A stretch of 24,000 bases of DNA from Pseudomonas mangiferae (GTDB lineage: Bacteria > Pseudomonadota > Gammaproteobacteria > Pseudomonadales > Pseudomonadaceae). Both the position numbers and the translations under genes were made by a program. This document shows, one piece after another, positions 1-21,399 of this stretch (position 1 is its first letter; each line of letters starts with the position of its first letter). Below the pieces are notes generated by a model that did no database searches, was not told where the DNA came from, and saw only the letters and a program-made list of their open reading frames with translations. The stretch is from contig NZ_VJOY01000005.1 in the NCBI RefSeq assembly GCF_007109405.1, positions 103,921 to 127,920 of the forward strand, in the 5' to 3' direction.

Positions 1-1
1 G

Positions 2-517
2 CGCAGTATCTGGGGCCCGCCCGAGGGGTGCGAGGCGCTGCGCCGCCAGCTGCTGGCGGACGTGGCCGACAACAGCGCCTTCCAGCGCCTGCTGGCGGAG
101 AACGCCCTGCGCCAGCGGCCGCCGGTAGGGCGCTTCCGGGACTTCGTGGTGGCGCGCAAGGGCGCCGAGAAGGACACCCTGGACCTCAAGGTGCAGGGCC
201 TGACCCCCTTCGTCGACGGCGCCCGCCTGCTGGCCCTGGCCAACGGGGTGGACGCCGTGGGCACCCTGGAGCGCCTGCGGGCCCTGGTGGCGCGAGACGT
301 CATCGACGAAAAGGACGGCGCCGCCTACGCCGAGGCCTACCACTTCATCCAGCTCATCCGCATGCAGCAGCACCAGCAGCAGGCGCGCCAGGACCTGCCC
401 TACGGCAACCGCCTGGACCCGGACAGCCTCAACCACCTGGACCGGCGCATCCTCCGCGAATCCTTCCGCCAGGCCCAGCGCCTGCAGGGCAGCCTGGCGC
501 TGCGCTACCAGCTATGA
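2..517 (+). CDS. DUF294-type putative nucleotidyltransferase, C-terminal substrate-binding domain; 5' end lies outside the window
   Basis: Frame 2 is open from nt 2, and the 'M' at 62 in the ORF track is an internal GTG (Val). The translated tail (FQRLLAENALRQRPPVGRFRDFVV...KDTLDLKVQGLTPFVDGARLLAL...TLERL) matches my recollection of the DUF294_C domain of cNMP/CBS nucleotidyltransferase-like proteins. The TGA at 515-517 overlaps the next start (ATGA). Confidence 0.65.
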   Translation, partial: RSIWGPPEGCEALRRQLLADVADNSAFQRLLAENALRQRPPVGRFRDFVVARKGAEKDTLDLKVQGLTPFVDGARLLALANGVDAVGTLERLRALVARDVIDEKDGAAYAEAYHFIQLIRMQQHQQQARQDLPYGNRLDPDSLNHLDRRILRESFRQAQRLQGSLALRYQL

Positions 518-1230
518 CGCCGTTCCCCTGGCTGCCCCGGCGACGCCTGCGTGCGCCCCTCGACCCGGACCTGCTGCAGCGCCGCGCGCGCCTGCCGGCC
601 CCGGCGCCCTTCGCCGCGGCGCCGGCGGCCCGCCAGCGGCTGGTGGTGCTGGACCTGGAAACCAGCGGCCTGGACCTGCACCGCGACCAGGTGCTGTCCA
701 TCGGTGCGGTGGCCATCGAGGACGGCGCCGTCGACTTCGCCCAGCAGTTTGAGGCCACCCTGCGCCGCGACGGGCAGCGCGAGCCCGGCGCCAGCGTGCT
801 GATCCATGGCCTCGCTCCGAGTGCCCTGGCCGCCGGGGTGGCGCCAGCGGACGGGCTGCTGGCGTTCATGGAATTCCTCGGCGACAGCCCGCTGCTGGCG
901 TTCCATGCCGGCTTCGACCGGCACATGCTGGCGCGGGCGCTCAAGGACAGCCTCGACCTGCGCCTGGCGCACCCTTTCCTCGACGTGGCCGAGCTGGCGC
1001 CGCTGCTGTGCCCGGAAGCCGGCCTGGAGCGCGGCGCCCTGGACGACTGGGTGGCGCGCTTCGGCCTGCAGGTGCAGCAGCGCCACCACGCCAGCGCCGA
1101 CGCCCTGGTCACCGGCGAGCTGGCGCTGATCCTCTTCCACCGGGCCCGCCGCCAGGGGCTGGACGACCTCGCCGGGCTGGCCGACGCCTGTGCCCGGCGC
1201 CGCCGCCGGCAGCAGGCGCCGTCGTTCTGA
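514..1230 (+). CDS. DEDDh-family 3'-5' exonuclease (DNA polymerase III epsilon/DnaQ-like)
   Basis: ATG 514 overlaps the upstream stop (ATGA at 514-517). Three exonuclease motifs appear in the expected order: VVLDLETSGL (Exo I, DxE), LAFHAGFDRHML (Exo II) and HHASADAL (Exo III, H-x4-D). The part of ORF 28..1230 upstream of 514 is a Pro/Arg/Gly-rich read-through of the previous gene in another frame. Confidence 0.8.
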   Translation: MTPFPWLPRRRLRAPLDPDLLQRRARLPAPAPFAAAPAARQRLVVLDLETSGLDLHRDQVLSIGAVAIEDGAVDFAQQFEATLRRDGQREPGASVLIHGLAPSALAAGVAPADGLLAFMEFLGDSPLLAFHAGFDRHMLARALKDSLDLRLAHPFLDVAELAPLLCPEAGLERGALDDWVARFGLQVQQRHHASADALVTGELALILFHRARRQGLDDLAGLADACARRRRRQQAPSF

Positions 1231-1314
1231 AGCAGTCACCCCCTTCCCCGCGTTCCGCCTCGGCACGACCGGCCGACTGGCCGTGATTGCAGGCGGCCAT
1301 GCCTGTCTGAGATG

Positions 1315-1333
1315 ATGCTTGCGAATCATTCTC
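1315..1333 (+). promoter_or_regulatory. Possible Fur box upstream of the ECF sigma gene
   Basis: atgcttgcgAATCATTcTC matches the 19-nt Fur consensus GATAATGATAATCATTATC at 11/19 positions by hand. The right half matches 9/10 and the left half is poor. It sits about 30 nt upstream of the preferred sigma start, and FecI-type sigma genes are typically Fur-repressed. Confidence 0.3.
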
Positions 1334-1365
1334 GTTTTTCAGTGCATTCCTGTCCGGAGGCTGCC

Positions 1366-1884
1366 GTGTCAGCAGGGGAAACGCTCGATCATCGAGGCGT
1401 GGGCGCGCTCTATCGCGACCATCGCCCGTGGCTGCTCGCCTGGCTGCGCAAGAGCCTGCACTGCCCCCAGCGGGCCGAGGACCTCAGCCAGGACACCTTC
1501 CTGCGCCTGCTGAACCGGCAGGACCTGGCGACGCCGCGGGAACCCCGGGCCCTGCTCACCACCATCGCCCGTGGCCTGCTGGTGGATCACTTCCGCCGCA
1601 GCGCCCTGGAACGCAGCTATCTGGACGAACTGGCGCGGCAGCCAATCGCCGAGCAGCCGGACGTGGAAGAGCAGGCCCTGCTGCTGGAGGCGCTGGCGGA
1701 GATCGACCGGCTGCTGGGCAGCCTCTCGGCCCGGGCCCGGGCGGCCTTCCTCTACAACCGCCTGGACGGCCTCGGCCACGCCGAGATCGCCAGCCGCCTG
1801 GGGGTCTCGGTGCCACGGGTGCGCCAATACCTGGCCCAGGGCCTGCGCCAGTGCTACGTGGCCCTCTACGGGGAACCGCGGTGA
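1366..1884 (+). CDS. ECF sigma-70 factor, FecI-like iron-starvation type
   Basis: Region 2 (DLSQDTFLRLL) and region 4.2 HTH (HAEIASRLGVSVPRVRQYLAQGL) are recognisable. I prefer GTG 1366, which is preceded by GGAGG at 1356-1360. The track's ATG 1312 is an alternative start. The stop overlaps the anti-sigma start (GTGA at 1881-1884). Confidence 0.85.
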   Translation: MSAGETLDHRGVGALYRDHRPWLLAWLRKSLHCPQRAEDLSQDTFLRLLNRQDLATPREPRALLTTIARGLLVDHFRRSALERSYLDELARQPIAEQPDVEEQALLLEALAEIDRLLGSLSARARAAFLYNRLDGLGHAEIASRLGVSVPRVRQYLAQGLRQCYVALYGEPR

Positions 1885-2840
1885 ACGCCCTGCCGGTGTC
1901 GGCGCGGGTGCTGGACGAGGCCATCGGCTGGCGGCTGTGCCTGGACGCGGGCGATGCCGACGGCCAGGCCCAGGCGGACTTCGCCGCCTGGCACGCGGCC
2001 CACCCGGAACACGCCCGGGCCTGGGCGCAACTGGCCGGCCTGGACCGCCAGCTGGCGCCGGCCAGCGCCGCTCCGGCCCGACGCGCGCTGCTGCGGGCGC
2101 GGCCGATGGCGCGTCACCTGCGGATCGGCGGCGGCCTGCTCGGGGTGCTGCTGGTGGGCGTGCTGAGCCTGGGCCTGCTGGAGCGCCAGCGGCCCCTGAG
2201 CGACTGGCTGGCCGATGAACTCACCCTGGGCGGCGAACAGCGCGAGCTGCGCCTGCCGGACCAGACCCGGGTGCGCCTGAACAGCCGCAGCGCCCTGGAC
2301 GTGCGCTTCGACGCACAGCAGCGGCGGATCGTCCTGCGCAGCGGCGAGATCCTGGTGGAGACCGCCCATGGCGACGACCGCCCGTTCATCGTCGCCACCG
2401 CGGACGGCGACCTGCGGGCCCTGGGCACGCGTTTCCTGGTGCGCCGCGAGGCCGACGGCACGCGCCTGACGGTGCTGCAATCGGCGGTGGCGGCGCGCCC
2501 GGCGGCCGGTGGCGACGCGCGCATCGTCACCGCCGACCACCAGGTGCTGATGCACGCCGACCGCCTGGAGGCCAGCCACGCCGCGCCGGTGGGCGCCGAC
2601 GCCTGGAGCCGCGGCATGCTGGTGGTGGAGAACCGGCGCCTGGGCGACCTGCTGGCGACCCTGGGGGAATACCGCGCCGGCCTCCTCGGCGCCGACCCGG
2701 CGGTGGCCGACCTGCGCATCAGCGGCAGCTTCCCGCTGTACGACAGCGACCGCGCCCTGGCCGCGCTGCCGCCGAGCCTGCCGGTGCGCATAGAGCGCCA
2801 CACCGACTGGTGGGTGCGGGTGCGGCCGGCCCAGCCCTGA
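1881..2840 (+). CDS. FecR-family transmembrane anti-sigma factor / sensor
   Basis: GTG 1881 overlaps the sigma stop. The N-terminal cytoplasmic sigma-binding segment (EAIGWRLCL...FAAWHAAHPEHARAW) is followed by a single TM helix (GGGLLGVLLVGVLSLGLL). A periplasmic FecR domain follows (LRLPDQTRVRLNSRSALDV...RIVLRSGEILVET). The position between an ECF sigma and a TonB transducer supports the call. Confidence 0.85.
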   Translation: MNALPVSARVLDEAIGWRLCLDAGDADGQAQADFAAWHAAHPEHARAWAQLAGLDRQLAPASAAPARRALLRARPMARHLRIGGGLLGVLLVGVLSLGLLERQRPLSDWLADELTLGGEQRELRLPDQTRVRLNSRSALDVRFDAQQRRIVLRSGEILVETAHGDDRPFIVATADGDLRALGTRFLVRREADGTRLTVLQSAVAARPAAGGDARIVTADHQVLMHADRLEASHAAPVGADAWSRGMLVVENRRLGDLLATLGEYRAGLLGADPAVADLRISGSFPLYDSDRALAALPPSLPVRIERHTDWWVRVRPAQP

Positions 2841-2850
2841 GGGCGCGAAC

Positions 2851-2880
2851 GGGGCCGGCGAAAAAAATATCGCCGGCCCC
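2851..2880 (+). terminator. Perfect 10-bp GC hairpin between the anti-sigma and receptor genes (possible terminator/attenuator)
   Basis: GGGGCCGGCG (2851-2860) pairs perfectly with CGCCGGCCCC (2871-2880). The loop is 10 nt, aaaaaaatat. It lies 11 nt after the fecR-like stop. The downstream sequence CTATCACTTT is only weakly T-rich, so intrinsic-terminator function is uncertain. Confidence 0.4.
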
Positions 2881-2908
2881 CTATCACTTTCGCGCCGTGC
2901 TTCGGCAA

Positions 2909-2933
2909 GGGAATGACCGAACCATTTCCGTCC
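2909..2933 (+). promoter_or_regulatory. Candidate ECF (FecI-type) promoter for the receptor gene
   Basis: A GGGAAT element (2909-2914) is followed 14-16 nt later by CGTCC (2929-2933). This resembles the GGAAT / CGTC-like -35/-10 pattern of ECF-dependent receptor promoters. The position is right, but the match is short. Confidence 0.3.
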
Positions 2934-2953
2934 GCTCCGGAGTTCCACCGTCC

Positions 2954-5362
2954 ATGTCCATGCCGCTCAGTTCCCTGTTCCGCCCGCGCCTGATGGCCGT
3001 CGCCGTTGCCCTGGTCGCCCAGCTGCCGCTCCACGCCCACGCCGAGCGCTACCAGCTGCCAGCGGCGCCCCTGGCCGCCACCCTGAACCGCATCGCCAGC
3101 GACGCGGGGATCGCCCTGAGCATCGACCCGGCCCTCACCGCCGGCAAGACCGCGCGCCCGGTCCAAGGCGAGTACGAACCCGCCGGCGCCCTGCGCGCCG
3201 CGCTGGCCGGCAGCGGCCTGCAACTGGTGCGCGGCGACGCCGGCAGCTACAGCCTGGCGGCCCTGCCGGCCGAAGGCGATGCCCTGGCACTGCCGGACGT
3301 GAACGTCGACGCCCGGGCCAGCGTCGAGGACGGCAGCGAGGAAGCCGGCTACCGCAGCGAGAACGTGAAGAACGTCGGCGCCCTGGGCGGCATGCGCCTG
3401 CAGGACACCCCTTACTCGGTGAGCGTGGTGCCCCACGAGTACCTGCAGAACATCCAGGCCACCACCATGGACGACGTGTTCAAGCGCAACCCCTTTACCC
3501 AGGTCTACAGCCCCACCGGGGCCGGCTACGCCAGTGCGGTGAGCATTCGCGGCTTCGCCAGCGCCGGCAACCTGAACATCGCCAACGACGGCCTGCGCTT
3601 CACCACCGCGGCGGACGGCGGCAACTACCTGGAGGAAATGCAGCAGTTGGAAGTGGTCACCGGCCTCACCGGCTTCCTCTACGGCCCGGCCTCGCCCGGC
3701 GGGCTGGTCAACTACGTGCTCAAGCGGCCCACCTACGAGCGCTACAACAGCGTCACCCTGGGCAACGCCGGCGGCGAGAACTATTACCTGCACGGCGACT
3801 TCGGCGGCCCCCTCGACGAGGCCAAGCGCTTCGCCTACCGGGTCAACGTGCTGGCCCAGGACGGCGAGACCGCCATCGACCTGCAGAAGCGCCGCCGCGA
3901 GATGATCAGCGCGGCCCTGGACTGGAACGTCACCGACGACCTGCTGGTGCAGTTCGACGCGTCCCACAAGAAGACCCGGATGCGCGGCCTGACCAGCTAC
4001 TGGTACATCCCCGACGGCAGCATGCGCCCGGATGCCTCGTCCCTGGACAACGACCGCCTGTACAGCCAGAAATGGGCCTTCTCCGACGACGAAAACGACC
4101 GCGTCGGCACCCGCGCCACCTGGCGCCTGAACGACGTCTTCAGCCTGCGCGGCGCCTTCTCCGCCACCGAGTTCACCTCGGAGTACACCTACACCGGCCC
4201 GAGCATCTACACCCCGGGCCGCTACGTGCAGGAGCTGTATGCCTTCGCCCCGGAGGACCACGAGGAGAAGTCCGGCTACCTGTTCCTCGACGCCGCCTTC
4301 GACACCGGGCCCCTGGGCCACAAGTTGACCCTGGGCTACCAGGGCAACACCGCGCGCACCAAGCAGCACATCGACAACGTGCCGTACCCCGGCCCGCAGT
4401 ACCAGTCGGTGGTGGGCAGCATCCCCCTGGACGAGACACCCCAGGTGGACAAGCCGGCCTATTCCATCGGCGACCGCTCCCGGCGCCTGGGCTCCACCAG
4501 CGAGTCCAACAACTACCTGATCGGCGACGTCATCACCCTCAACGAGCAGTGGTCGACGATCCTCGGGGTCACCCACACCCAGATCAAGAGCTACAGCAAC
4601 GACTTCGTCTACGCCACCGCCTTCGGCTACGACGAGACCGCCACCCGTTACGACAAGTCCGAGACCTCCCCCAATGTCTCCCTGGTGTTCAAGCCGCTGC
4701 CCTGGCTGACCACCTACGCCACCTACATCGAAGGCCTGCAGGCCGGCGGCAGCGCGCCCAGCACGGCGATCAACCGCGGCGTGGCCCTGGAGCCCCAGGT
4801 CAGCGAGCAGTACGAGATCGGCGCCAAGGCGACCGTCGGCGAGACCCTGCTGACCCTGGCGCTGTTCAACATCGAGAAACCCAACAGCTACGTGAACGGC
4901 GCCAACCTCTATGTCCAGGACGGGCGCCAGGAGAACAACGGCCTGGAGTTCAGCGTCACCGGCAAGGTGCTGCCGCAGCTGACCCTGATGGGCGGCGTGA
5001 CCCTGCTGGACCCGCAGATCAAGAAGACCCGCCTGGCTGCCAACGAGGGCAACAAGCCCAACAACACCGCTTCGCAGCTGGCCAAGCTGTACGGCGAGTA
5101 CGAACTGGGCGCGGTGCCCGGCCTGGCCCTCACCGGCGGCGCCTACTACACCGGCAAGCAGTACGTGGACGAGGCCAACAGCGCCAGCCTGCCTTCCTTC
5201 ACCGTGTTCGACGCCGGTGCCCGCTATCGCACCCGGGTGGCCGAGAACCAGGTGACCCTGCGGGTCAACGTCAACAACCTCACCGACAAGGCCTACTGGC
5301 TGAACAGTTCCTACCTGGGCGAGCCGCGCAGCGTGGCGTTCTCCGCCCAGCTGGAATTCTGA
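2954..5362 (+). CDS. TonB-dependent siderophore receptor with N-terminal signalling (STN) domain (transducer type)
   Basis: Start at ATG 2954 gives a signal peptide (MSMPLSSLFRPRLMAVAVALVAQLPLHAHA). An STN/secretin-like domain follows (YQLPAAPLAATLNRIASDAGIALSIDPALTAGKTARPVQGEY...LQLV). A plug domain is present (TPYSVSVV...VSIRGF), followed by a long beta-barrel ending in the typical aromatic terminus ...AFSAQLEF. The ORF track's 2810 start lies in the intergenic hairpin/promoter region. Confidence 0.9.
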   Translation: MSMPLSSLFRPRLMAVAVALVAQLPLHAHAERYQLPAAPLAATLNRIASDAGIALSIDPALTAGKTARPVQGEYEPAGALRAALAGSGLQLVRGDAGSYSLAALPAEGDALALPDVNVDARASVEDGSEEAGYRSENVKNVGALGGMRLQDTPYSVSVVPHEYLQNIQATTMDDVFKRNPFTQVYSPTGAGYASAVSIRGFASAGNLNIANDGLRFTTAADGGNYLEEMQQLEVVTGLTGFLYGPASPGGLVNYVLKRPTYERYNSVTLGNAGGENYYLHGDFGGPLDEAKRFAYRVNVLAQDGETAIDLQKRRREMISAALDWNVTDDLLVQFDASHKKTRMRGLTSYWYIPDGSMRPDASSLDNDRLYSQKWAFSDDENDRVGTRATWRLNDVFSLRGAFSATEFTSEYTYTGPSIYTPGRYVQELYAFAPEDHEEKSGYLFLDAAFDTGPLGHKLTLGYQGNTARTKQHIDNVPYPGPQYQSVVGSIPLDETPQVDKPAYSIGDRSRRLGSTSESNNYLIGDVITLNEQWSTILGVTHTQIKSYSNDFVYATAFGYDETATRYDKSETSPNVSLVFKPLPWLTTYATYIEGLQAGGSAPSTAINRGVALEPQVSEQYEIGAKATVGETLLTLALFNIEKPNSYVNGANLYVQDGRQENNGLEFSVTGKVLPQLTLMGGVTLLDPQIKKTRLAANEGNKPNNTASQLAKLYGEYELGAVPGLALTGGAYYTGKQYVDEANSASLPSFTVFDAGARYRTRVAENQVTLRVNVNNLTDKAYWLNSSYLGEPRSVAFSAQLEF

Positions 5363-14518: not shown

Positions 14519-15409
14519 ATGCGGGCGCTCCTCACCGGCCTCTGCGCCGTCTTCCTGCTGTTGCTCAACACCCTGGTGCTGATCGGGCCGATGATGCTGG
14601 TCGCCCTGTTCAAGCGGGTGGCGCCGTCACAGGCCCTGCGCGACCGCTGCTCGCGGTGGGTGATGGGCATCGCCGAGACCTGGGCGGAAAACGACAAGCG
14701 CATCTTCGCCGCCCTCACCCCCACGGTATGGGACATCCGCGGCGGCGAGCAGCTGCGCCGCGACAGCTCCTACCTGGTGATCAGCAACCACCAGTCCTGG
14801 GTGGACATCCCGGCCCTGGTGCAGGCCCTCAACCGCCGCGCGCCCTACTTCAAGTTCTTCCTCAAGCAGCAGTTGATCTGGGTGCCGTTCCTCGGCCTGG
14901 CCTTCTGGGCCCTGGAGTACCCCTTCATGAAGCGCTATTCCAAGGCCTACCTGGAGAAGAACCCGCACATGCGCGGCAAGGACCTGGAGATCACCCGGGC
15001 CGCCTGCGAGAAGTTCAAGCGCCTGCCGGTCACCGTGGTCAACTACCTGGAAGGCACCCGCTTCACCCCGGCCAAACAGGCCTACCAGCAGTCTCCCTAC
15101 CGTTACCTGCTAAAGCCCAAGGCCGGCGGCGTGGCCTTCGTGCTGGCGGCCCTGGGCGACCAGTTGGACGCGATCCTCGACGTCACCCTGGTCTACCCGG
15201 GCGAACGGGTGCCGGGGTTCTGGGACCTGCTCTGCGGGCGGGTGCCGCGGGTGATCATGGACATCCGCAGCCTGCCCCTGGACCCGCGCCTGTGGCAGGG
15301 CGATTACCAGGGCGATCCGGTCTTCCGCCAGTACGTGCAGGACTGGGTCACCCAGCTGTGGCAGGAGAAGGACGCGCGGATCGCCGCGCTGCGCGCCGGG
15401 ACGGCCTGA
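14519..15409 (+). CDS. Lysophospholipid (PlsC/YihG-type) acyltransferase
   Basis: The HX4D acyltransferase motif NHQSWVDIP and the YLEGTRFT block are present, with an N-terminal TM helix (LLTGLCAVFLLLLNTLVLIGPMMLV). I prefer ATG 14519, with AAGGA 10 nt upstream. ATG 14483 is an alternative start. The long 5' part of ORF 13874..15409 is antisense to the HD-GYP gene. Confidence 0.8.
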   Translation: MRALLTGLCAVFLLLLNTLVLIGPMMLVALFKRVAPSQALRDRCSRWVMGIAETWAENDKRIFAALTPTVWDIRGGEQLRRDSSYLVISNHQSWVDIPALVQALNRRAPYFKFFLKQQLIWVPFLGLAFWALEYPFMKRYSKAYLEKNPHMRGKDLEITRAACEKFKRLPVTVVNYLEGTRFTPAKQAYQQSPYRYLLKPKAGGVAFVLAALGDQLDAILDVTLVYPGERVPGFWDLLCGRVPRVIMDIRSLPLDPRLWQGDYQGDPVFRQYVQDWVTQLWQEKDARIAALRAGTA

Positions 15410-15527
15410 GCGGCCCCGGCGAAATTTCCGACGAACGCCACCCGCGCCCAGTCCACGGGCCCTCGGGCGCACCGCCCGCGGCCCCGAGAGAGGGTGGCGA
15501 TTGGCCGCGAGCCGACCTTCCGTGTTT

Positions 15528-15549
15528 ATATTGAACGTTCGATCAATAT
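15528..15549. promoter_or_regulatory. Palindromic operator, BetI(TetR-family)-like, upstream of the BCCT transporter
   Basis: ATATTGAACGTTCGATCAATAT has perfect 7-nt arms, ATATTGA / TCAATAT. They flank an 8-nt core that contains the self-complementary GAACGTTC. The site is AT-rich in an otherwise GC-rich spacer, about 60 nt upstream of the ATG. As I recall them, BetI operators share a TTGAACGTTCAA-like core. Confidence 0.45.
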
Positions 15550-15609
15550 TCTGACCAGGAGGTCTGCCTTGCCTATCTTCCGCCCTCTCGCGTCGATGGG
15601 CGCTCGCCG

Positions 15610-17613
15610 ATGAGTGCGCCGTCGACCCCGGAGGCCGCGACGCCCCGCATGAACCCGCCGGTGTTCTACAGCTCGGCGGCGGTCATCCTGCTGTTCGGCC
15701 TGGTGGTGATGGGCGCGCCCCAGCGCGCCGGCGACTGGCTGCTGCGGGCCCAGACCTGGGCCGCCGACAGCGTCGGCTGGTACTACCTGCTGGCGATGAC
15801 CCTGTACTTGGTGTTCGTGGTGGTCACCGCCCTGTCCGGCTATGGCCGGATCAAGCTGGGGGCCGACCACGACGAGCCGGAGTTCAGCTACCTGTCCTGG
15901 GCCGGCATGCTGTTCGCCGCCGGGATCAGCATCACCCTGTTCTTCTTCTGCGTTTCCGAGCCCCTGACCCACTTCGCCCAGCCTCCCCAGGGCGAGGGCG
16001 GCAGCCGCGAGGCGGCGCGCCAGGCGATGCAGCTGCTGTTCCTGCACTGGGGCCTGCACGGCTGGGGCGTATTCGCCCTGGTGGCCATGGCGCTGGCCTA
16101 CTTCGCCTACCGCCACAATCTGCCCCTGGCCCTGCGCTCGGCCCTCTACCCGCTGATCGGCAAGCGCATCGACGGCCCCCTGGGCTACGCGGTGGACGCC
16201 TTCGGGATAATCGCCACGGTCTTCGGCCTGGGCGCCGACATGGGCTTCGGCGTACTGCACCTGAACGCCGGCCTCGACTACCTCGTCGGCATCCCCCACA
16301 GCGCCTGGGTGCAGGCCACGCTGATCGCGCTGATGATGGGTGCGGCGATCCTGGTGGCGGTGTCCGGGGTGGAAAAGGGCGTGCGCCTGATGTCCGACCT
16401 GAACATGCTGCTGGCCTGCGGGCTGCTGCTGTTCGTGCTATTCGCCGGCCCCACCCAGCATCTGCTCAACACCCTGATCCAGAACCTCGGGGACTACCTG
16501 GGCGCACTGCCCACCAAGAGCTTCGACCTCTACGCCTACGACGAGCCCTCCGACTGGCTGGGCGGCTGGACGGTGTTCTACTGGGCCTGGTGGATCGCCT
16601 GGGCGCCCTTCGTCGGGCTGTTCATCGCGCGCATCTCCCGCGGCCGGACGATCCGCGAGTTCGTCTTCGGCGTGCTGTTCATCCCCCTCGGCTTCACCCT
16701 GGCGTGGATGTCCATCTTCGGTAACAGCGCCCTGGACCAGGTGATTGGCCATGGCTTCGGCGACCTGGCGCGGGTCGCCGTGGAAGAGCCGGCCATGGCC
16801 ATCTACCGGCTGCTGGAAACCTACCCCTGGAGCCGGGCGGTGATCGGCACCACGGTGTTCGTCAGCTTCGTGTTCTTCGTCACCTCGGCGGATTCCGGCA
16901 CCGTGGTGCTGTCCACCCTCTCCGCCCGCGGCGGCAGCGTCGACGAGGACGGGCCGAAGTGGCTGCGGGTGTTCTGGGGTGTCACCACCGCCCTGGTCAC
17001 CAGCGGGTTGCTGTTCGCCGGCAGCATCGACGCGCTGAAATCGGCGGTGGTGCTCACCTCCCTGCCGTTCTCGCTGATCCTGCTGCTGATGATGTGGGGC
17101 CTGCACAAGGCCTTCTACCTGGAGTCCCAGCGCCAGCGCGCGCGGCTGCATTCGCCGATGCCGGTGACCGGCCGCTCCAGCCGCCACGGCGGCGGCTGGC
17201 GCCAGCGCCTGGGCCAGGCGGTGCACTTCCCGTCCCGGGACGAGGTATACCGCTTCATGGACAGCCGCGTGCGCCCGGCGATGGAGGACGTGGCGGCGCA
17301 ATTCCGCGAGAAGGGCCTGAGCGTCGACACCGACCTGGACGCCAACACCGCCAGCCTCAGCCTGGAGATCGGCCACGGCGAGGAACACCCGTTCCTCTAC
17401 CGGGTGATCATGCGCGGCTACTTCACCCCGTCCTTCGCCATCGCCGGCCTGCAGGCGCGCAACCTCAACAATCGCCGCTACTACCGCGCGGAGGTGCACC
17501 TGGCCGAGGGCAGCCAGGACTACGACCTGGTGGGCTACAGCCGGGAACAGGTGATCAACGACATCCTCGACCAGTACGAGCGGCACCTGCAGTTCCTGCA
17601 CCTGGTGCGTTGA
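15610..17613 (+). CDS. betT: BCCT-family choline/betaine transporter, BetT-like with long cytoplasmic C-terminal extension
   Basis: The BCCT signature WTVFYWAWWIAWAPFVGLFIARISRGRTIREF is present. The protein has 12 TM-type hydrophobic segments and a hydrophilic tail of about 150 aa, as in BetT. No in-frame start exists upstream of ATG 15610, since TGA lies at 15532. ATG 15649 is an alternative start. The symbol rests on family resemblance plus the upstream operator, not on a search. Confidence 0.85.
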   Translation: MSAPSTPEAATPRMNPPVFYSSAAVILLFGLVVMGAPQRAGDWLLRAQTWAADSVGWYYLLAMTLYLVFVVVTALSGYGRIKLGADHDEPEFSYLSWAGMLFAAGISITLFFFCVSEPLTHFAQPPQGEGGSREAARQAMQLLFLHWGLHGWGVFALVAMALAYFAYRHNLPLALRSALYPLIGKRIDGPLGYAVDAFGIIATVFGLGADMGFGVLHLNAGLDYLVGIPHSAWVQATLIALMMGAAILVAVSGVEKGVRLMSDLNMLLACGLLLFVLFAGPTQHLLNTLIQNLGDYLGALPTKSFDLYAYDEPSDWLGGWTVFYWAWWIAWAPFVGLFIARISRGRTIREFVFGVLFIPLGFTLAWMSIFGNSALDQVIGHGFGDLARVAVEEPAMAIYRLLETYPWSRAVIGTTVFVSFVFFVTSADSGTVVLSTLSARGGSVDEDGPKWLRVFWGVTTALVTSGLLFAGSIDALKSAVVLTSLPFSLILLLMMWGLHKAFYLESQRQRARLHSPMPVTGRSSRHGGGWRQRLGQAVHFPSRDEVYRFMDSRVRPAMEDVAAQFREKGLSVDTDLDANTASLSLEIGHGEEHPFLYRVIMRGYFTPSFAIAGLQARNLNNRRYYRAEVHLAEGSQDYDLVGYSREQVINDILDQYERHLQFLHLVR

Positions 17614-17621
17614 GGCCGGGG

Positions 17622-17654
17622 GGGGACGCGAGCAGGCGCCCTTCCCCTCGTTTT
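17622..17654 (+). terminator. Weak candidate intrinsic terminator after the BCCT gene
   Basis: GGGGA-CGC (17622-17629) can pair with GCG (17636-17638) and TCCCC (17643-17647). The pairing has a 6-nt loop and a 4-nt bulge and is followed by TCGTTTT (17648-17654). The stem is imperfect, so this is tentative. Confidence 0.3.
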
Positions 17655-17748
17655 CCGGGGGCTCGCCGCGTTCGAACTGTGCGTGACACCACAGGATCAT
17701 TCGCGCTTCTCCAGCATGCTGGCGCGTCCATGGCAAAGGGAATTCATC

Positions 17749-18534
17749 ATGCTGACGTTCACACGCAATACACGGGACGCCGACCCCGTCACCGGAACGG
17801 TCGACCTGGTCATCGGCAACAAACTGACGGTGAAGCTGAATGGCCTGGGGCCCGACAAGAAACATTACCAGGTCACCAGCGACAGCCCGTGCATCGACGT
17901 GAAACAGAAAGCGGACGAACGCTTCCAGGAACAGACGATCCGCTTCGAGGCCAGAATGGCCTGTCAGGGCGCCCGCATCACGGCGCTCAGTGGCACAGGT
18001 GAGAAATTCCTGACAGGGCTGACGTTTAATGTCGTGCCAAGGCTGGAGCTTCCACCCGTGAATACGGATGAGGGTGCGCTTGCACGGGTATTGTTGGCCG
18101 AATCCATAACCCCGGACGACCAAGAATTTCCTGGTGGCGAAGCCTCACTTACATCGATGCGCCTAATACAACAGGTACTCCTAAACAGATTAGGCTTTCC
18201 TGATATCAGCGTCTTCAATCGGCCAAGCGCTCGCACTATTACTGCACTCATCATGGCAGGCCTGGGAAATGAAGTTAAAGGTTTCGGGGCCTATCCAAAT
18301 ATTGAGGCCAAACAAGCCAGACTTATCGCGAATATACTTACTATCGGAAACGATGCCAGTGACAGACGTTACGCACTGTATCGAGATCATATTAAAAGGG
18401 CACTGGATGTCGTCACTGGCACGGTACCGCGCCTGGAGGGTGATTACTACGGATGGAGAACCAAAGAATCCTCTCACCCGGGCGGTGCCTATGAACAGCC
18501 CTACAATATCGCCGGCCAGACTTTTATAAACTAA
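17749..18534 (+). CDS. Hypothetical two-domain protein: N-terminal beta-rich domain plus C-terminal SleB/CwlJ (Hydrolase_2)-like cell-wall hydrolase-type domain; candidate antibacterial effector
   Basis: I prefer ATG 17749, with AAGGGA at 17736-17741 and a 7-nt spacer. The track start 17683 is a GTG. There is no signal peptide. The C-terminal half has three motifs in the family order. LARVLLAES corresponds to LARxxxGEA with the catalytic Glu. MRLIQQVLLNRL corresponds to VAxVILNRV. The terminal IAGQTFIN corresponds to IGxHxFY. The resemblance is at motif level only. Confidence 0.6.
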   Translation: MLTFTRNTRDADPVTGTVDLVIGNKLTVKLNGLGPDKKHYQVTSDSPCIDVKQKADERFQEQTIRFEARMACQGARITALSGTGEKFLTGLTFNVVPRLELPPVNTDEGALARVLLAESITPDDQEFPGGEASLTSMRLIQQVLLNRLGFPDISVFNRPSARTITALIMAGLGNEVKGFGAYPNIEAKQARLIANILTIGNDASDRRYALYRDHIKRALDVVTGTVPRLEGDYYGWRTKESSHPGGAYEQPYNIAGQTFIN

Positions 18535-18568
18535 GCCGCTCTTTTACAGAGAGATACAGGAAGACAAA

Positions 18569-19108
18569 ATGATGTCACGCGCTCTTTATCTTCTAGCATT
18601 ATCAGCGTGTTTATTGGGCATTAGCCATATCCCCATCGCTCACTCCAAAGAAAAATTCGGGCCCACTATATTCGAGGGACAAGTTTCACGTTTCGATGCA
18701 AGCCAGGCTCCACTTTTCCTGGAGCCTCTATACGAACTGCAATACCTGATCGTGAGCATGGGGAAAAATCAAATACTCAATCACTTCTGCATGGTCGGCT
18801 ATCGGTGGCCGGACGGCCATCAACGGGTAGCGGTGTACTGGCCGGAGGGACGGACGATCTATCGCTGGAATGGCCGGCGTGACAAGCCTGACCGATACAG
18901 CCGCTATGCCTCCACATTGTTCATGTCGCCCAGCATCGATCTCGACCACAACGTAGTGGAGCGCCAGGAAGACATGGGCATGGCCACCTACCTGCGATCG
19001 TCCGTGGGCGGGACGATCGCGGACTGCAAGGCGCACGGAACCTGGTACCGCGTGGAGCCCTTCCAGCCGCCGAAGGACGAAGACAACGATGAAGAAGGAT
19101 GGGAGTGA
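18569..19108 (+). CDS. Exported/lipoprotein partner of the upstream hydrolase-like gene; candidate periplasmic immunity protein
   Basis: AGGAAG (18558-18563) lies 5 nt before ATG 18569, and the gene starts 34 nt after the upstream stop. The N-terminus MMSRALYLLALSAC carries a lipobox-like L-S-A-C. Alternatively, signal peptidase I could cleave after IAHS. The tail is acidic (KDEDNDEEGWE). No family recognised. Confidence 0.6.
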   Translation: MMSRALYLLALSACLLGISHIPIAHSKEKFGPTIFEGQVSRFDASQAPLFLEPLYELQYLIVSMGKNQILNHFCMVGYRWPDGHQRVAVYWPEGRTIYRWNGRRDKPDRYSRYASTLFMSPSIDLDHNVVERQEDMGMATYLRSSVGGTIADCKAHGTWYRVEPFQPPKDEDNDEEGWE

Positions 19109-19148
19109 CGCAGGCTAGTTAGCGCCATCAGGTGCGTGGATAGGGTGA

Positions 19149-19619
19149 TTAGCGACAGTCGAACCGTCCACGCCAGCCTGCTGGATGGTCGCCTCGCCAC
19201 ATTGTTCCAACGCAAGTCTCACGATGATCGTCTAAGCGTCGACCCAGCTTCAGCAAGCCGCTTCCGTATTCGCAGACCAGCCATTTTCCGTCAGGGTAAT
19301 CCCCTTCAAATGACCAGGTAGAGGAAGCATCATCGGCATCAGGTCCGTCAGCATCCTGAGGTTTGAGCGCTCCGCCATGCTCAGGCGGACCATCGTATAC
19401 AGCGATGCTTTCTAATACCAATTGCGTGGGAATAGAAACCAACCTTGTTTCAGCAGGTAAATCTGCAGCCTTTATTTCAGCCGATTGAATCGGCAGCGTG
19501 AATGGGCATTCGAATTTTTCGCTTTCGGCCGTTTCCCGCGCATGAGCTTCCCCACAAAAAATAAGCAATATTAGTAGCGGTAATTTTCTCAAAAAATTAT
19601 TCAATGATTGAATATGCAT
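19149..19619 (-). CDS. Exported partner of the papain-fold gene; candidate periplasmic immunity protein
   Basis: Starting at ATG 19619 gives MHIQSLNNFLRKLPLLILLIFCGEAHA/RE, a signal peptide, and overlaps the upstream gene by 23 nt. An alternative TTG at 19592 gives MRKLPLLILLIFCGEAHA with no overlap. The mature protein has four Cys (ECPF, LVCEY, ETCVG, FDCR), consistent with periplasmic disulfides. The longer track ORF (to 19805) runs inside the upstream gene. Confidence 0.55.
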   Translation of the reverse strand: MHIQSLNNFLRKLPLLILLIFCGEAHARETAESEKFECPFTLPIQSAEIKAADLPAETRLVSIPTQLVLESIAVYDGPPEHGGALKPQDADGPDADDASSTWSFEGDYPDGKWLVCEYGSGLLKLGRRLDDHRETCVGTMWRGDHPAGWRGRFDCR

Positions 19620-19992
19620 CGGCATTATTGCTCGGATCATTATATCCACCTTTACTATTTTTACCCTTTCTACGGATGTATCTTTTGGAAACGAAAGGCT
19701 TTCTCTTGTCATCCTTCCACTGATCCATAATCCATATGCCATTGGCATCTTTTGAAAGAAAGAATGCAGCATGATTACCCGTAGAGTGGTTAGAGTAAAC
19801 GCCATTACTGAATGTGGCTATCGCCGTTCCCTTGTGAATTATTTTGTTCTCGTCTTCAAATACAGATTTTCCTTCATGCCAAAAAGCCGTATTAGGTATA
19901 TTTGTATAATGCTGAAGAAGTGCTACGCATTGCTTGGAGCCAACTTTGCTTGTGTTCTCCAACCCGTCTGCTTCTGGATAAATATAGGGCAT
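19597..19992 (-). CDS. Small (131 aa) papain-fold (NlpC/P60/CHAP-like) Cys-His hydrolase, BPSL0067/Tae2-like; candidate peptidoglycan amidase effector
   Basis: The order Cys (GSKQCVALLQHY), His (TGNHAAFFL), polar residue (IMDQW) is typical of papain-fold amidases. There is no signal peptide. The size and motifs match my recollection of the 'BPSL0067 family' and the Tae2 T6SS amidases. This is unverified. Confidence 0.65.
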   Translation of the reverse strand: MPYIYPEADGLENTSKVGSKQCVALLQHYTNIPNTAFWHEGKSVFEDENKIIHKGTAIATFSNGVYSNHSTGNHAAFFLSKDANGIWIMDQWKDDKRKPFVSKRYIRRKGKNSKGGYNDPSNNADAYSIIE

Positions 19993-20286
19993 AAAATAGC
20001 TGCTCGAATTTTTAATGAATAGTAAATTTTCAGAAAAATTTTGAACATGGTCTGATTCACATTTTCAACAGATCAATAGAGAGTTCGGCAGAGAACTGCG
20101 CCATCCAGTTAAGATTTTTATGCATGCGGGCATTGAATCAGCTGTTCCGATTGCTTCGATCTGACAAAGCAGCTGTCGTCTGGCCACATTGACCACGCCA
20201 CCCCTCATTCCCAGCCATCGACCGCGCTGAACTCTGCTGGCGGCCCATTGCCCACTTCCTTACCCATCGGAAAGAGGAGACAGGTT

Positions 20287-21399
20287 GTGAGCAACCCAGG
20301 CACGCAAGGCAAGGTGCGCTACGCCGTGGTCGGAGGCGGCTGGATATCCCAGGCGGCGTTCATGCCCGGCGTCGGCCAGACCGAGAATTCCGTGATGACC
20401 GCCCTGGTCACCGGCGACCCGCGCAAGGCCGACGAATTGGCCGGGCGCTATGGCCTGAAAAGTTATGCCTACGAGGACTACGAGAACCTGCTGGGCTCCG
20501 GGGAGATCGACGCGGTGTACATCGCCACGCCGAACTTCCTGCACCGCCAGTTCGTGCTGCCGGCGCTGAAGGCCGGCATCCACGTGTTGCTGGAGAAGCC
20601 CGCCGAAGCCGGCGAGGCGGCGGCGCGGGAGATCTTCGAGGCGACCAAGGCGTCCCGCGCCAAGCTGATGGTCGCCTACCGCCTGCACCACGAGCCAGGC
20701 ACCCTGGAGATGATCGAGCGGGTACGCGCCCGGGAGTTCGGCGACCCACGGCTGTTCACCTCCACCTTCTCCCAAAAGGTAGACCCGTCCAACCACCGCG
20801 CCCGCAACGGCTTCTGGGCCGGCCCGGTGGCGGATATGGGGCCCTACCCGCTGAACGCCGTGCGCAACCTGTTCGGTGCCGAGCCCATCGAGGTGAGCGC
20901 CGTAGGCGTGAAAACCCCGGGCCTGGGCTTCGATTTCCACGACAGCGTCACCGTTACCCTGCGCTTCCCCGAGGAACGCCTGGCCACCTTCACCGTGAGC
21001 TACAGCGTGCCGGGCAGCGAGCGCTTCCAGCTGATCGGCAGCGAGGGGGAGATCGAGGCGTCGCCCTGTTTCGGTTTCGGCCCGGGTACGGCGATCACCT
21101 ACCGCACCACCCGCGGCGAGCAGCAGGAGGAACGCCGCCAGGCGGTGCTGGACCAGTTCGCCGGCGAGACCGCGTATTTCTCCGACTGCATCCTCAACGA
21201 CCGCCAGCCGGAAGCCGATGCCGAGGAAGGCTGGCTGGACGTGCGGGTGATCGCCGCGGTGGAGCGCGCCCTGGAGAGCGGCCAATCCCAGCGGCTGGAG
21301 CCCTACGACCGCAGCAAGCGCCCTGGCCGCGACCAGGCCCGCCAGTACCCCCAGGGCGAGGTGCCGTCGTTCATCGACGCCGAGCCGCCCACCGGCTGA
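20287..21399 (+). CDS. Gfo/Idh/MocA-family NAD(P)-dependent oxidoreductase
   Basis: GTG 20287 is preceded by GAGGAG (20275-20280). The Rossmann N-terminus is VRYAVVGGGWISQAAF, followed by the family EKP motif (HVLLEKPAE) and a C-terminal alpha/beta domain. The track's 20248 start adds 13 codons without an RBS. Confidence 0.85.
   Translation: MSNPGTQGKVRYAVVGGGWISQAAFMPGVGQTENSVMTALVTGDPRKADELAGRYGLKSYAYEDYENLLGSGEIDAVYIATPNFLHRQFVLPALKAGIHVLLEKPAEAGEAAAREIFEATKASRAKLMVAYRLHHEPGTLEMIERVRAREFGDPRLFTSTFSQKVDPSNHRARNGFWAGPVADMGPYPLNAVRNLFGAEPIEVSAVGVKTPGLGFDFHDSVTVTLRFPEERLATFTVSYSVPGSERFQLIGSEGEIEASPCFGFGPGTAITYRTTRGEQQEERRQAVLDQFAGETAYFSDCILNDRQPEADAEEGWLDVRVIAAVERALESGQSQRLEPYDRSKRPGRDQARQYPQGEVPSFIDAEPPTG

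Follow-up and report, generated by a model that had tools for sequence, protein, structure and literature searches.

A Tae2/Tai2-type amidase and immunity gene pair within a low-GC insert of Pseudomonas mangiferae

The tae2 and tai2 genes

The 24,000-nucleotide stretch of Pseudomonas mangiferae DNA considered here (contig NZ_VJOY01000005.1, positions 103,921 to 127,920; hereafter the window) carries on its minus strand two overlapping genes, tae2 (19597..19992) and tai2 (19149..19619). By family, the first encodes a leaderless papain-fold peptidoglycan amidase of 131 residues that belongs to the BPSL0067 family, and the second an exported-type protein of 156 residues of the STY0301 family, the presumed cognate immunity protein, whose ATG overlaps tae2 by 23 nt. 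Our analysis confirms the pair as a genuine but ordinary addition to the known Tae2/Tai2 family.

With respect to the 131-aa protein, the initial annotation, made from the sequence without database searches, had described the Cys/His/polar arrangement of a papain-type amidase and the lack of a signal peptide, and had proposed both a likeness to the BPSL0067 family and the equivalence of that family with Tae2; all of these readings have held up. The tae2 open reading frame (ORF), which runs from 19992 to 19597, contains the motifs QCVALL, GNHAAFF and MDQW, which hold C22, H74 and D90, respectively. Its N-terminus has no hydrophobic stretch and by inspection begins MPYIYPE like those of its homologues; the N-terminal segment MPYIYPEADGLENT is polar and agrees, by inspection only, with homologue N-termini. 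In a HMMER search the NCBIfam model BPSL0067_fam (NF033857) scores 163.2 bits against a cut-off of 27 and is matched over positions 2-115 of its 115. No Pfam domain, CHAP or NlpC-P60 included, is found in Tae2 at E<=1, and only NCBIfam has a model for it.

The sole significant relative in the PDB is 6WIN (“Type 6 secretion amidase effector 2”), which aligns with residues 2-131 at an E-value of 3.5e-41 in a HMMER alignment. No other relevant PDB chain matches the Tae2 sequence at E<=10, and the solved Tse1, Tae3 and Tae4 chains are absent from its matches even at this permissive threshold. The 6WIN protein is the Tae2 of Salmonella Typhi, whose catalytic residues are Cys23 and His73 (10.1101/2020.04.10.036376); in the same HMMER alignment these published residues coincide with C22 and H74 of the window protein. 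The cysteine and histidine singled out in the initial annotation are, moreover, invariant, together with D90, across an alignment of 25 homologues. The AlphaFold model of Tae2 (predicted local distance difference test score, pLDDT, of 89.6) superimposes on 6WIN with a template-modelling (TM) score of 0.89 and a root-mean-square deviation of 1.9 Å. Besides 6WIN, no PDB fold matches the model at E<0.2, and the next-best folds, those of CHAP endolysins, are weak (TM 0.42-0.47). The 131-aa protein is clearly a member of the Tae2 family in which both the catalytic residues and the fold have been retained.

The biochemistry of this family is known from two relatives. In both B. thailandensis and Salmonella, where it is encoded in Salmonella pathogenicity island 6 (SPI-6), Tae2 is a type VI secretion system (T6SS) peptidoglycan amidase that cleaves the cross-link between meso-diaminopimelate (mDAP) and D-alanine (PMC8926400, PMC10469887). 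The only substrate of the S. Typhi enzyme, Tae2St, is the Gram-negative sacculus, and the scissile bond is again mDAP/D-Ala (10.1101/2020.04.10.036376). The B. thailandensis protein is BTH_I0068 (PMC8926400), and the Tae2/Tai2 genes are sited in variable region 1 of SPI-6 (PMC10469887).

The downstream ORF had been taken in the initial annotation for a signal-peptide protein with four cysteines, and this description fits the product read from the ATG at 19619: 156 aa, with the leader MHIQSLNNFLRKLPLLILLIFCGEAHA/RE (the slash marks the predicted cleavage site). The predicted Sec signal peptide, delimited by inspection, comprises residues 1-27 (19539..19619, minus strand); in the leader LLILLIFCGEAHA/RE an RK n-region, a LPLLILLIF core and an AHA/RE cleavage motif can be read by eye. 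Four cysteines (C38, C116, C136 and C155) lie past the predicted cleavage site and a fifth lies within the signal peptide. The four, along with Y118, are invariant in 58 aligned Tai2 sequences. The homologues have hydrophobic N-termini throughout, followed by a conserved CP motif, and a few of them have lipoboxes.

The assignment of this protein rests on the NCBIfam model STY0301_fam (NF042415), which it matches with 64.4 bits against a cut-off of 22; Pfam gives no match. Since both proteins score far above the curated cut-offs of their families, the pair is not a product of chance ORFs. When 1.84 billion representatives were searched in full with HMMER, 209 relatives of Tai2 were recovered at E<=0.001, the best of them about 40% identical; a word-indexed protein search returned the query alone. 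Its AlphaFold model is all-beta, with a pLDDT of 87 overall and above 90 in the mature part. Foldseek finds no credible match to this model in the PDB (best E 0.33), a profile search likewise gives none, and neither a solved Tai2 nor a Tae2-Tai2 complex was found there by sequence or profile.

Synteny and divergence of the family

To obtain a broader view of the gene order we have employed a set of 80 genomic Tae2 loci, whose ORFs were searched with a hidden Markov model derived from STY0301-type representatives. In 72 of these 80 loci, including those of Burkholderia, Enterobacter and Citrobacter, the gene immediately downstream is of the STY0301 type and on the same strand, and the partner in the window is therefore Tai2; this bears out the Tai-type immunity arrangement that the initial annotation had seen. 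In seven of the 80 Tae2 loci (L007, L010, L017, L035, L071, L073 and L082) a STY0301-family gene is missing downstream; they belong to Holophagaceae, Planctomycetaceae, Gemmatimonadales, Vibrio, Pseudoalteromonas and Chitinispirillaceae, lineages that may use a different immunity family.

Where the start of the downstream gene is clear (67 pairs), it overlaps the Tae2 gene in 40 cases and falls within 40 nt of it in a further 24. This bears on the choice between the two starts offered by the initial annotation, either an ATG giving a 23-nt overlap or a TTG giving a 4-nt gap, both of which are indeed present: the tae2 stop codon occupies 19599-19597, the ATG at 19619 gives an overlap of 23 nt with tae2, and the TTG at 19592 lies 4 nt beyond the stop. 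The overlapping ATG is the likelier start, because 40 of the 67 homologous pairs overlap and because the stored gene call, which is of the 156-aa form, also uses it.

The nearest pair is 69% identical in Tae2 and 26% in Tai2, a mismatch that we considered as a possible anomaly and rejected as typical of the family. Pairs with Tae2 proteins 60-70% identical have Tai2 proteins with a median identity of 31%, and the Tae2-to-Tai2 divergence ratio of the window pair is typical of the family. As for linkage, a gene for Hcp, TssB/C, TssK, TssF or VgrG lies within 4 kb of 17 of the 80 Tae2 loci, the other 63 being orphans.

Of the characterized systems, the S. Typhi pair most resembles the one described here. 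The two Tae2 proteins are of the same length class, align over their full length and are about 53-60% identical; they have the same fold and the same catalytic cysteine and histidine, and in both genomes a STY0301-family exported partner follows directly downstream. The S. Typhi genes, however, lie within a T6SS cluster, downstream of tssC (PMC10469887), whereas the window pair is an orphan on a contig apart from the T6SS. Furthermore, unlike the S. Typhi pair, it resides in a Pseudomonadaceae host, within a low-GC insert of 1.1 kb, and its Tai2 has diverged strongly. Tae2 of B. thailandensis (BTH_I0068), a T6SS-1 substrate, belongs to the same NCBIfam family, which takes its name from BPSL0067 of B. 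pseudomallei. Five Burkholderia loci (L075-L078 and L086) similarly carry a Tae2 gene paired with a STY0301-family gene (in Burkholderia with a 4-nt overlap) and are likewise orphans, in that no core gene of a T6SS lies within 4 kb, but their Tae2 proteins are only 41-43% identical to that of the window and form a separate, well-supported clade of the tree. A more general likeness extends to Tae1 (Tse1)/Tai1 (Tsi1) of the P. aeruginosa H1-T6SS and to Tae3 and Tae4, which are also small leaderless papain-fold amidases that leave the cell through an antibacterial T6SS and are coupled with a periplasmic immunity protein; these, however, have no detectable sequence relationship to the window Tae2 and a different cleavage site (PMC10469887).

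The host genome (G000; 4.68 Mb in 41 contigs, Pseudomonadaceae) contains other members of both families. A second Tae2/Tai2 pair is found on contig C22 (L004:1459-1836 and 1823-2164, plus strand), with scores of 92 bits for BPSL0067 and 62 bits for STY0301. Like the window pair it consists of a BPSL0067-family gene and an overlapping STY0301-family gene (14 nt) in an orphan locus. It has a native GC content (guanine plus cytosine) of 63-70%, and its Tai2 bears the classical lipobox LLAGC in place of the AHA/RE signal-peptidase-I-type site of the window Tai2. The C22 pair is common to both congeners, and its identity to the window pair is low, about 37% for Tae2 and 36% for Tai2; given this divergence and the different leader types, cross-protection between the two pairs is doubtful. 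A third Tai2-like gene of the STY0301 family (C39:128458-128841 = L105:2453-2842, minus strand; 83.9 bits) stands without a Tae2 gene, and its signal peptide is interrupted by an in-frame TAG (MLAALLPA, stop, LLAGDYVCPEV...); it is probably a decaying orphan immunity gene. In a search of 40 relatives of the host, only two of the 24 other genomes of the same taxonomic family, both of them the congeners, carry the Tae2 family.

Composition, boundaries and origin of the insert

The base composition of the pair had also been remarked upon in the initial annotation, which called it the most AT-rich coding sequence of the window, with roughly 25-35% G+C. The first part of this statement stands; the second applies to some lines of the sequence and not to the gene, tae2 having a GC content of 39.1% and tai2 one of 49.3%, as against 68.8% for the window and 69% for the genome. 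Single 60-nt lines within the pair drop to 23-25%, and of all 300-nt stretches in the 24 kb the one beginning at 19551 has the lowest GC (36.7%). There is also a GC step inside the module, from about 39% in tae2 to 25% in the signal-peptide part of tai2, which is the most AT-rich coding stretch, and then to 47-63% in the part encoding mature Tai2.

Comparison with the two congeners delimits the module sharply. One of them, G002, is collinear with the window on both sides: by blastn, positions 15125-19111 correspond to 1-4012 of its locus L088 (82%) and positions 20191-21383 to 4150-5346 (84%). The G002 site has the BetT-like transporter gene, the oxidoreductase gene and, between them, a further gene pair (the left pair, described below); the Tae2/Tai2 module is absent. 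The intervening sequence of the window (19112..20190) comprises tai2, tae2 and a leader, and measures 1,079 bp, compared with 137 unrelated bp in G002. The leader itself is a 198-bp AT-rich non-coding sequence (19993..20190, minus strand; 45% GC) upstream of tae2, which falls within the stretch absent from G002. In the other congener, G001, homology to the window ends straight after the transporter gene, and neither congener has a close copy of the window Tae2. Since G002 has the same flanks and the same left pair but only 137 bp at this place, the 1,079-bp module is best read, on this comparison of sequences, as an insertion in the present lineage, and probably a recent one.

No mobility gene is present in the insert and the window lacks tRNA genes; nor were a clean target-site duplication or terminal inverted repeats found at the insert. 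An imperfect 17-nt direct repeat (15/17) does occur, at 19188-19204 and 20175-20191; the former copy falls within the 3' end of tai2 and the latter ends exactly where the congener homology resumes. By a rough estimate the chance expectation of such a repeat in this stretch is about 0.06, and we treat it as no more than a candidate, either the scar of a recombination event or simply a product of chance.

The nearest relatives of Tae2 are no more than 70% identical and come, for the most part, from metagenomes and from Burkholderiales. In the Tae2 tree the window protein falls, far from the host's own paralogue, in a poorly resolved group of 24 rows that is made up mostly of Burkholderiales and Rhodocyclaceae and also has rows from Acidobacteriota, Gemmatimonadota and Alphaproteobacteria. 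No donor lineage can be named from this tree, nor was a donor plasmid found, the plasmid collection yielding nine distant relatives, none of which reaches 60% identity and most of which are partial. The flanking oxidoreductase, for its part, has its best matches among Pseudomonas proteins, of which the nearest from a named species is that of P. alcaligenes (81%). Horizontal acquisition would be the best explanation of this pattern.

The closest Tae2 with a genomic context (69% identical, 39% GC) is on a metagenome contig from SRR32051689 (L005:781-7118), where it is accompanied by Tai2 on a plasmid-like sequence with TrfA, ParA and BrnT. Adjoining this Tae2/Tai2 pair, on the opposite strand, are a DPBB (RlpA-like) gene and a 190-aa gene, which may form a second effector pair directed at the cell wall.

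Next to the insert lies the left pair (17683-19108, plus strand), a convergent pair that encodes a 283-aa leaderless protein and a 179-aa exported protein; neither has a sequence-level match in Pfam, NCBIfam or the PDB. It occupies the same site in G002 (82%), and in G001 a 69% copy is found on another contig. Its conservation at the same site in G002 indicates that the left pair is older than the Tae2/Tai2 insert. The betT-oxidoreductase spacer thus exists in three states: with neither pair in one congener, with the left pair only in the other, and with the left pair plus the module here. Moreover, STY0301/Tai2 has a confident all-beta model with two disulfides and no detectable solved relative. 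We offer, as two rather unlikely speculations, that this spacer accretes effector-immunity cassettes with no integrase, transposase or tRNA involved, and that Tai2 represents an undescribed immunity fold.

Delivery, competing explanations and significance

The initial annotation had placed the pair far from any T6SS gene in the window, and had left it to be seen whether the host has such a system elsewhere. No T6SS gene does in fact occur in the window. The single T6SS cluster of the host (C11:469324-494793; L106 and L107) is on a different contig from the pair, and it carries genes for TssM, TssL (DotU plus OmpA), TssK, PP2C, Fha, a Ser/Thr kinase, TssA, TssB, TssC, Hcp, TagJ/ImpE and TssF. 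The set of Fha, kinase, phosphatase and TagJ is shared with the P. aeruginosa H1-T6SS, and we take it to denote the phosphorylation-regulated antibacterial H1 type; judged by its gene content, the host system is complete and H1-like. The kinase is PpkA-like with a PEGA domain. The C11 cluster ends without VgrG, and several vgrG genes are located elsewhere, mostly at contig ends (C37:304326, C5:93923 and C38:96192).

Taking these data together, we consider it very probable that the pair was acquired horizontally and makes up an orphan effector-immunity module of the Tae2/Tai2 kind, whose toxin is delivered by the host T6SS and neutralised by Tai2. Secretion and export, cleavage specificity, immunity and expression are here inferred from the family. 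By analogy, Tae2 would be made in the cytoplasm without a signal peptide and loaded onto the single H1-like T6SS, most likely as cargo of the Hcp lumen, a route suggested by its size of 15 kDa and by the absence of an adjoining VgrG, PAAR or adaptor gene. Injection would then bring it into the periplasm of Gram-negative neighbours, where the papain-type Cys22/His74 site would cut the D-Ala-mDAP cross-link amide, leading to a weakened wall and lysis. Translation of Tai2 would begin at the ATG overlapping the tae2 stop region, giving coupled expression; the protein would be exported by Sec, form its two disulfides in the periplasm, and there bind and block the Tae2 arriving from sister cells. 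The 198-bp leader presumably holds the tae2 promoter.

Several observations weigh against this reading. A simple consensus scan of 19000-20300 found no sigma-70-like promoter, and Shine-Dalgarno sequences are poor at both candidate Tai2 starts, the ATG at 19619 and the TTG at 19592. AT-rich DNA in pseudomonads may, in addition, be open to MvaT/MvaU-type silencing. Genes for Hcp, VgrG, PAAR and adaptors are absent near the pair, so that the delivery route is a guess, and for a module that would stem from a distant lineage compatibility with the host Hcp is in question. Finally, the GC step described above may mean that tae2 and tai2 have had separate histories.

The foreign character of the module lends itself to another explanation, that it is kept mainly for defence: Tai2 would guard the cell against the Tae2 of competitors such as Burkholderiales, while the host's own Tae2 goes undelivered because of an incompatible Hcp or spike or because its gene is silent. 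The 39% GC of the module and the occurrence of its nearest relatives in other classes and phyla are in keeping with this, as is the fact that no loading partner is encoded nearby; the Tai2-like gene on C39, which has no toxin, shows further that members of this immunity family exist by themselves in the genome. However, Tae2 is intact, with every invariant residue in place, and an unused toxin would be expected to decay. This argument from decay is weak in both directions, the insert being probably recent and having had little time to degenerate, and on balance we think defence improbable as the main reason for the maintenance of the module.

Considerably less probable still is that the module, as xenogeneic DNA to which MvaT/MvaU binds, is not transcribed and is carried along with no present function. 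That the leader and the 5' parts of both genes are extremely AT-rich would suit such a role, as would the failure to find a consensus promoter and the presence of the module in just one of the three genomes of the genus; yet neither ORF is disrupted, and their overlap is the coupled arrangement typical of the family, and the silencing of many T6SS effector genes is only conditional. Lastly, a housekeeping or phage-type hydrolase (a CHAP or NlpC-P60 autolysin or endolysin) with no T6SS tie and an unrelated periplasmic neighbour is hardly credible: its papain/CHAP-like fold, the weak resemblance to CHAP endolysins and the mention of LysK endolysin similarity for Tae2St (10.1101/2020.04.10.036376) are outweighed by a specific full-length match to Tae2, by the lack of a CHAP or NlpC/P60 domain in Pfam and of phage genes nearby, by the strict pairing of a leaderless protein with an exported partner in 72 of the 80 genomes, and by the 17 loci that adjoin T6SS core genes.

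The delivered and neutralised effector-immunity module, which we prefer, leaves the known mechanism of Tae2 unchanged. What it adds is a diverged Tae2/Tai2 pair in a Pseudomonadaceae lineage, which bears on the host range of the family. In comparison with the congeners it also provides a before-and-after view of the probable gain of a T6SS weapon, in the form of a promoter-plus-two-gene module of about 1.1 kb that adjoins an older effector-immunity-like pair. The confident model of Tai2, for which the PDB has no match, makes its family a reasonable structural target. Moreover, the coexistence in a single genome of two Tae2/Tai2 pairs only about 37% identical, together with a Tai2-like gene that a stop codon interrupts, makes cross-immunity and effector redundancy in this organism open to experimental test.

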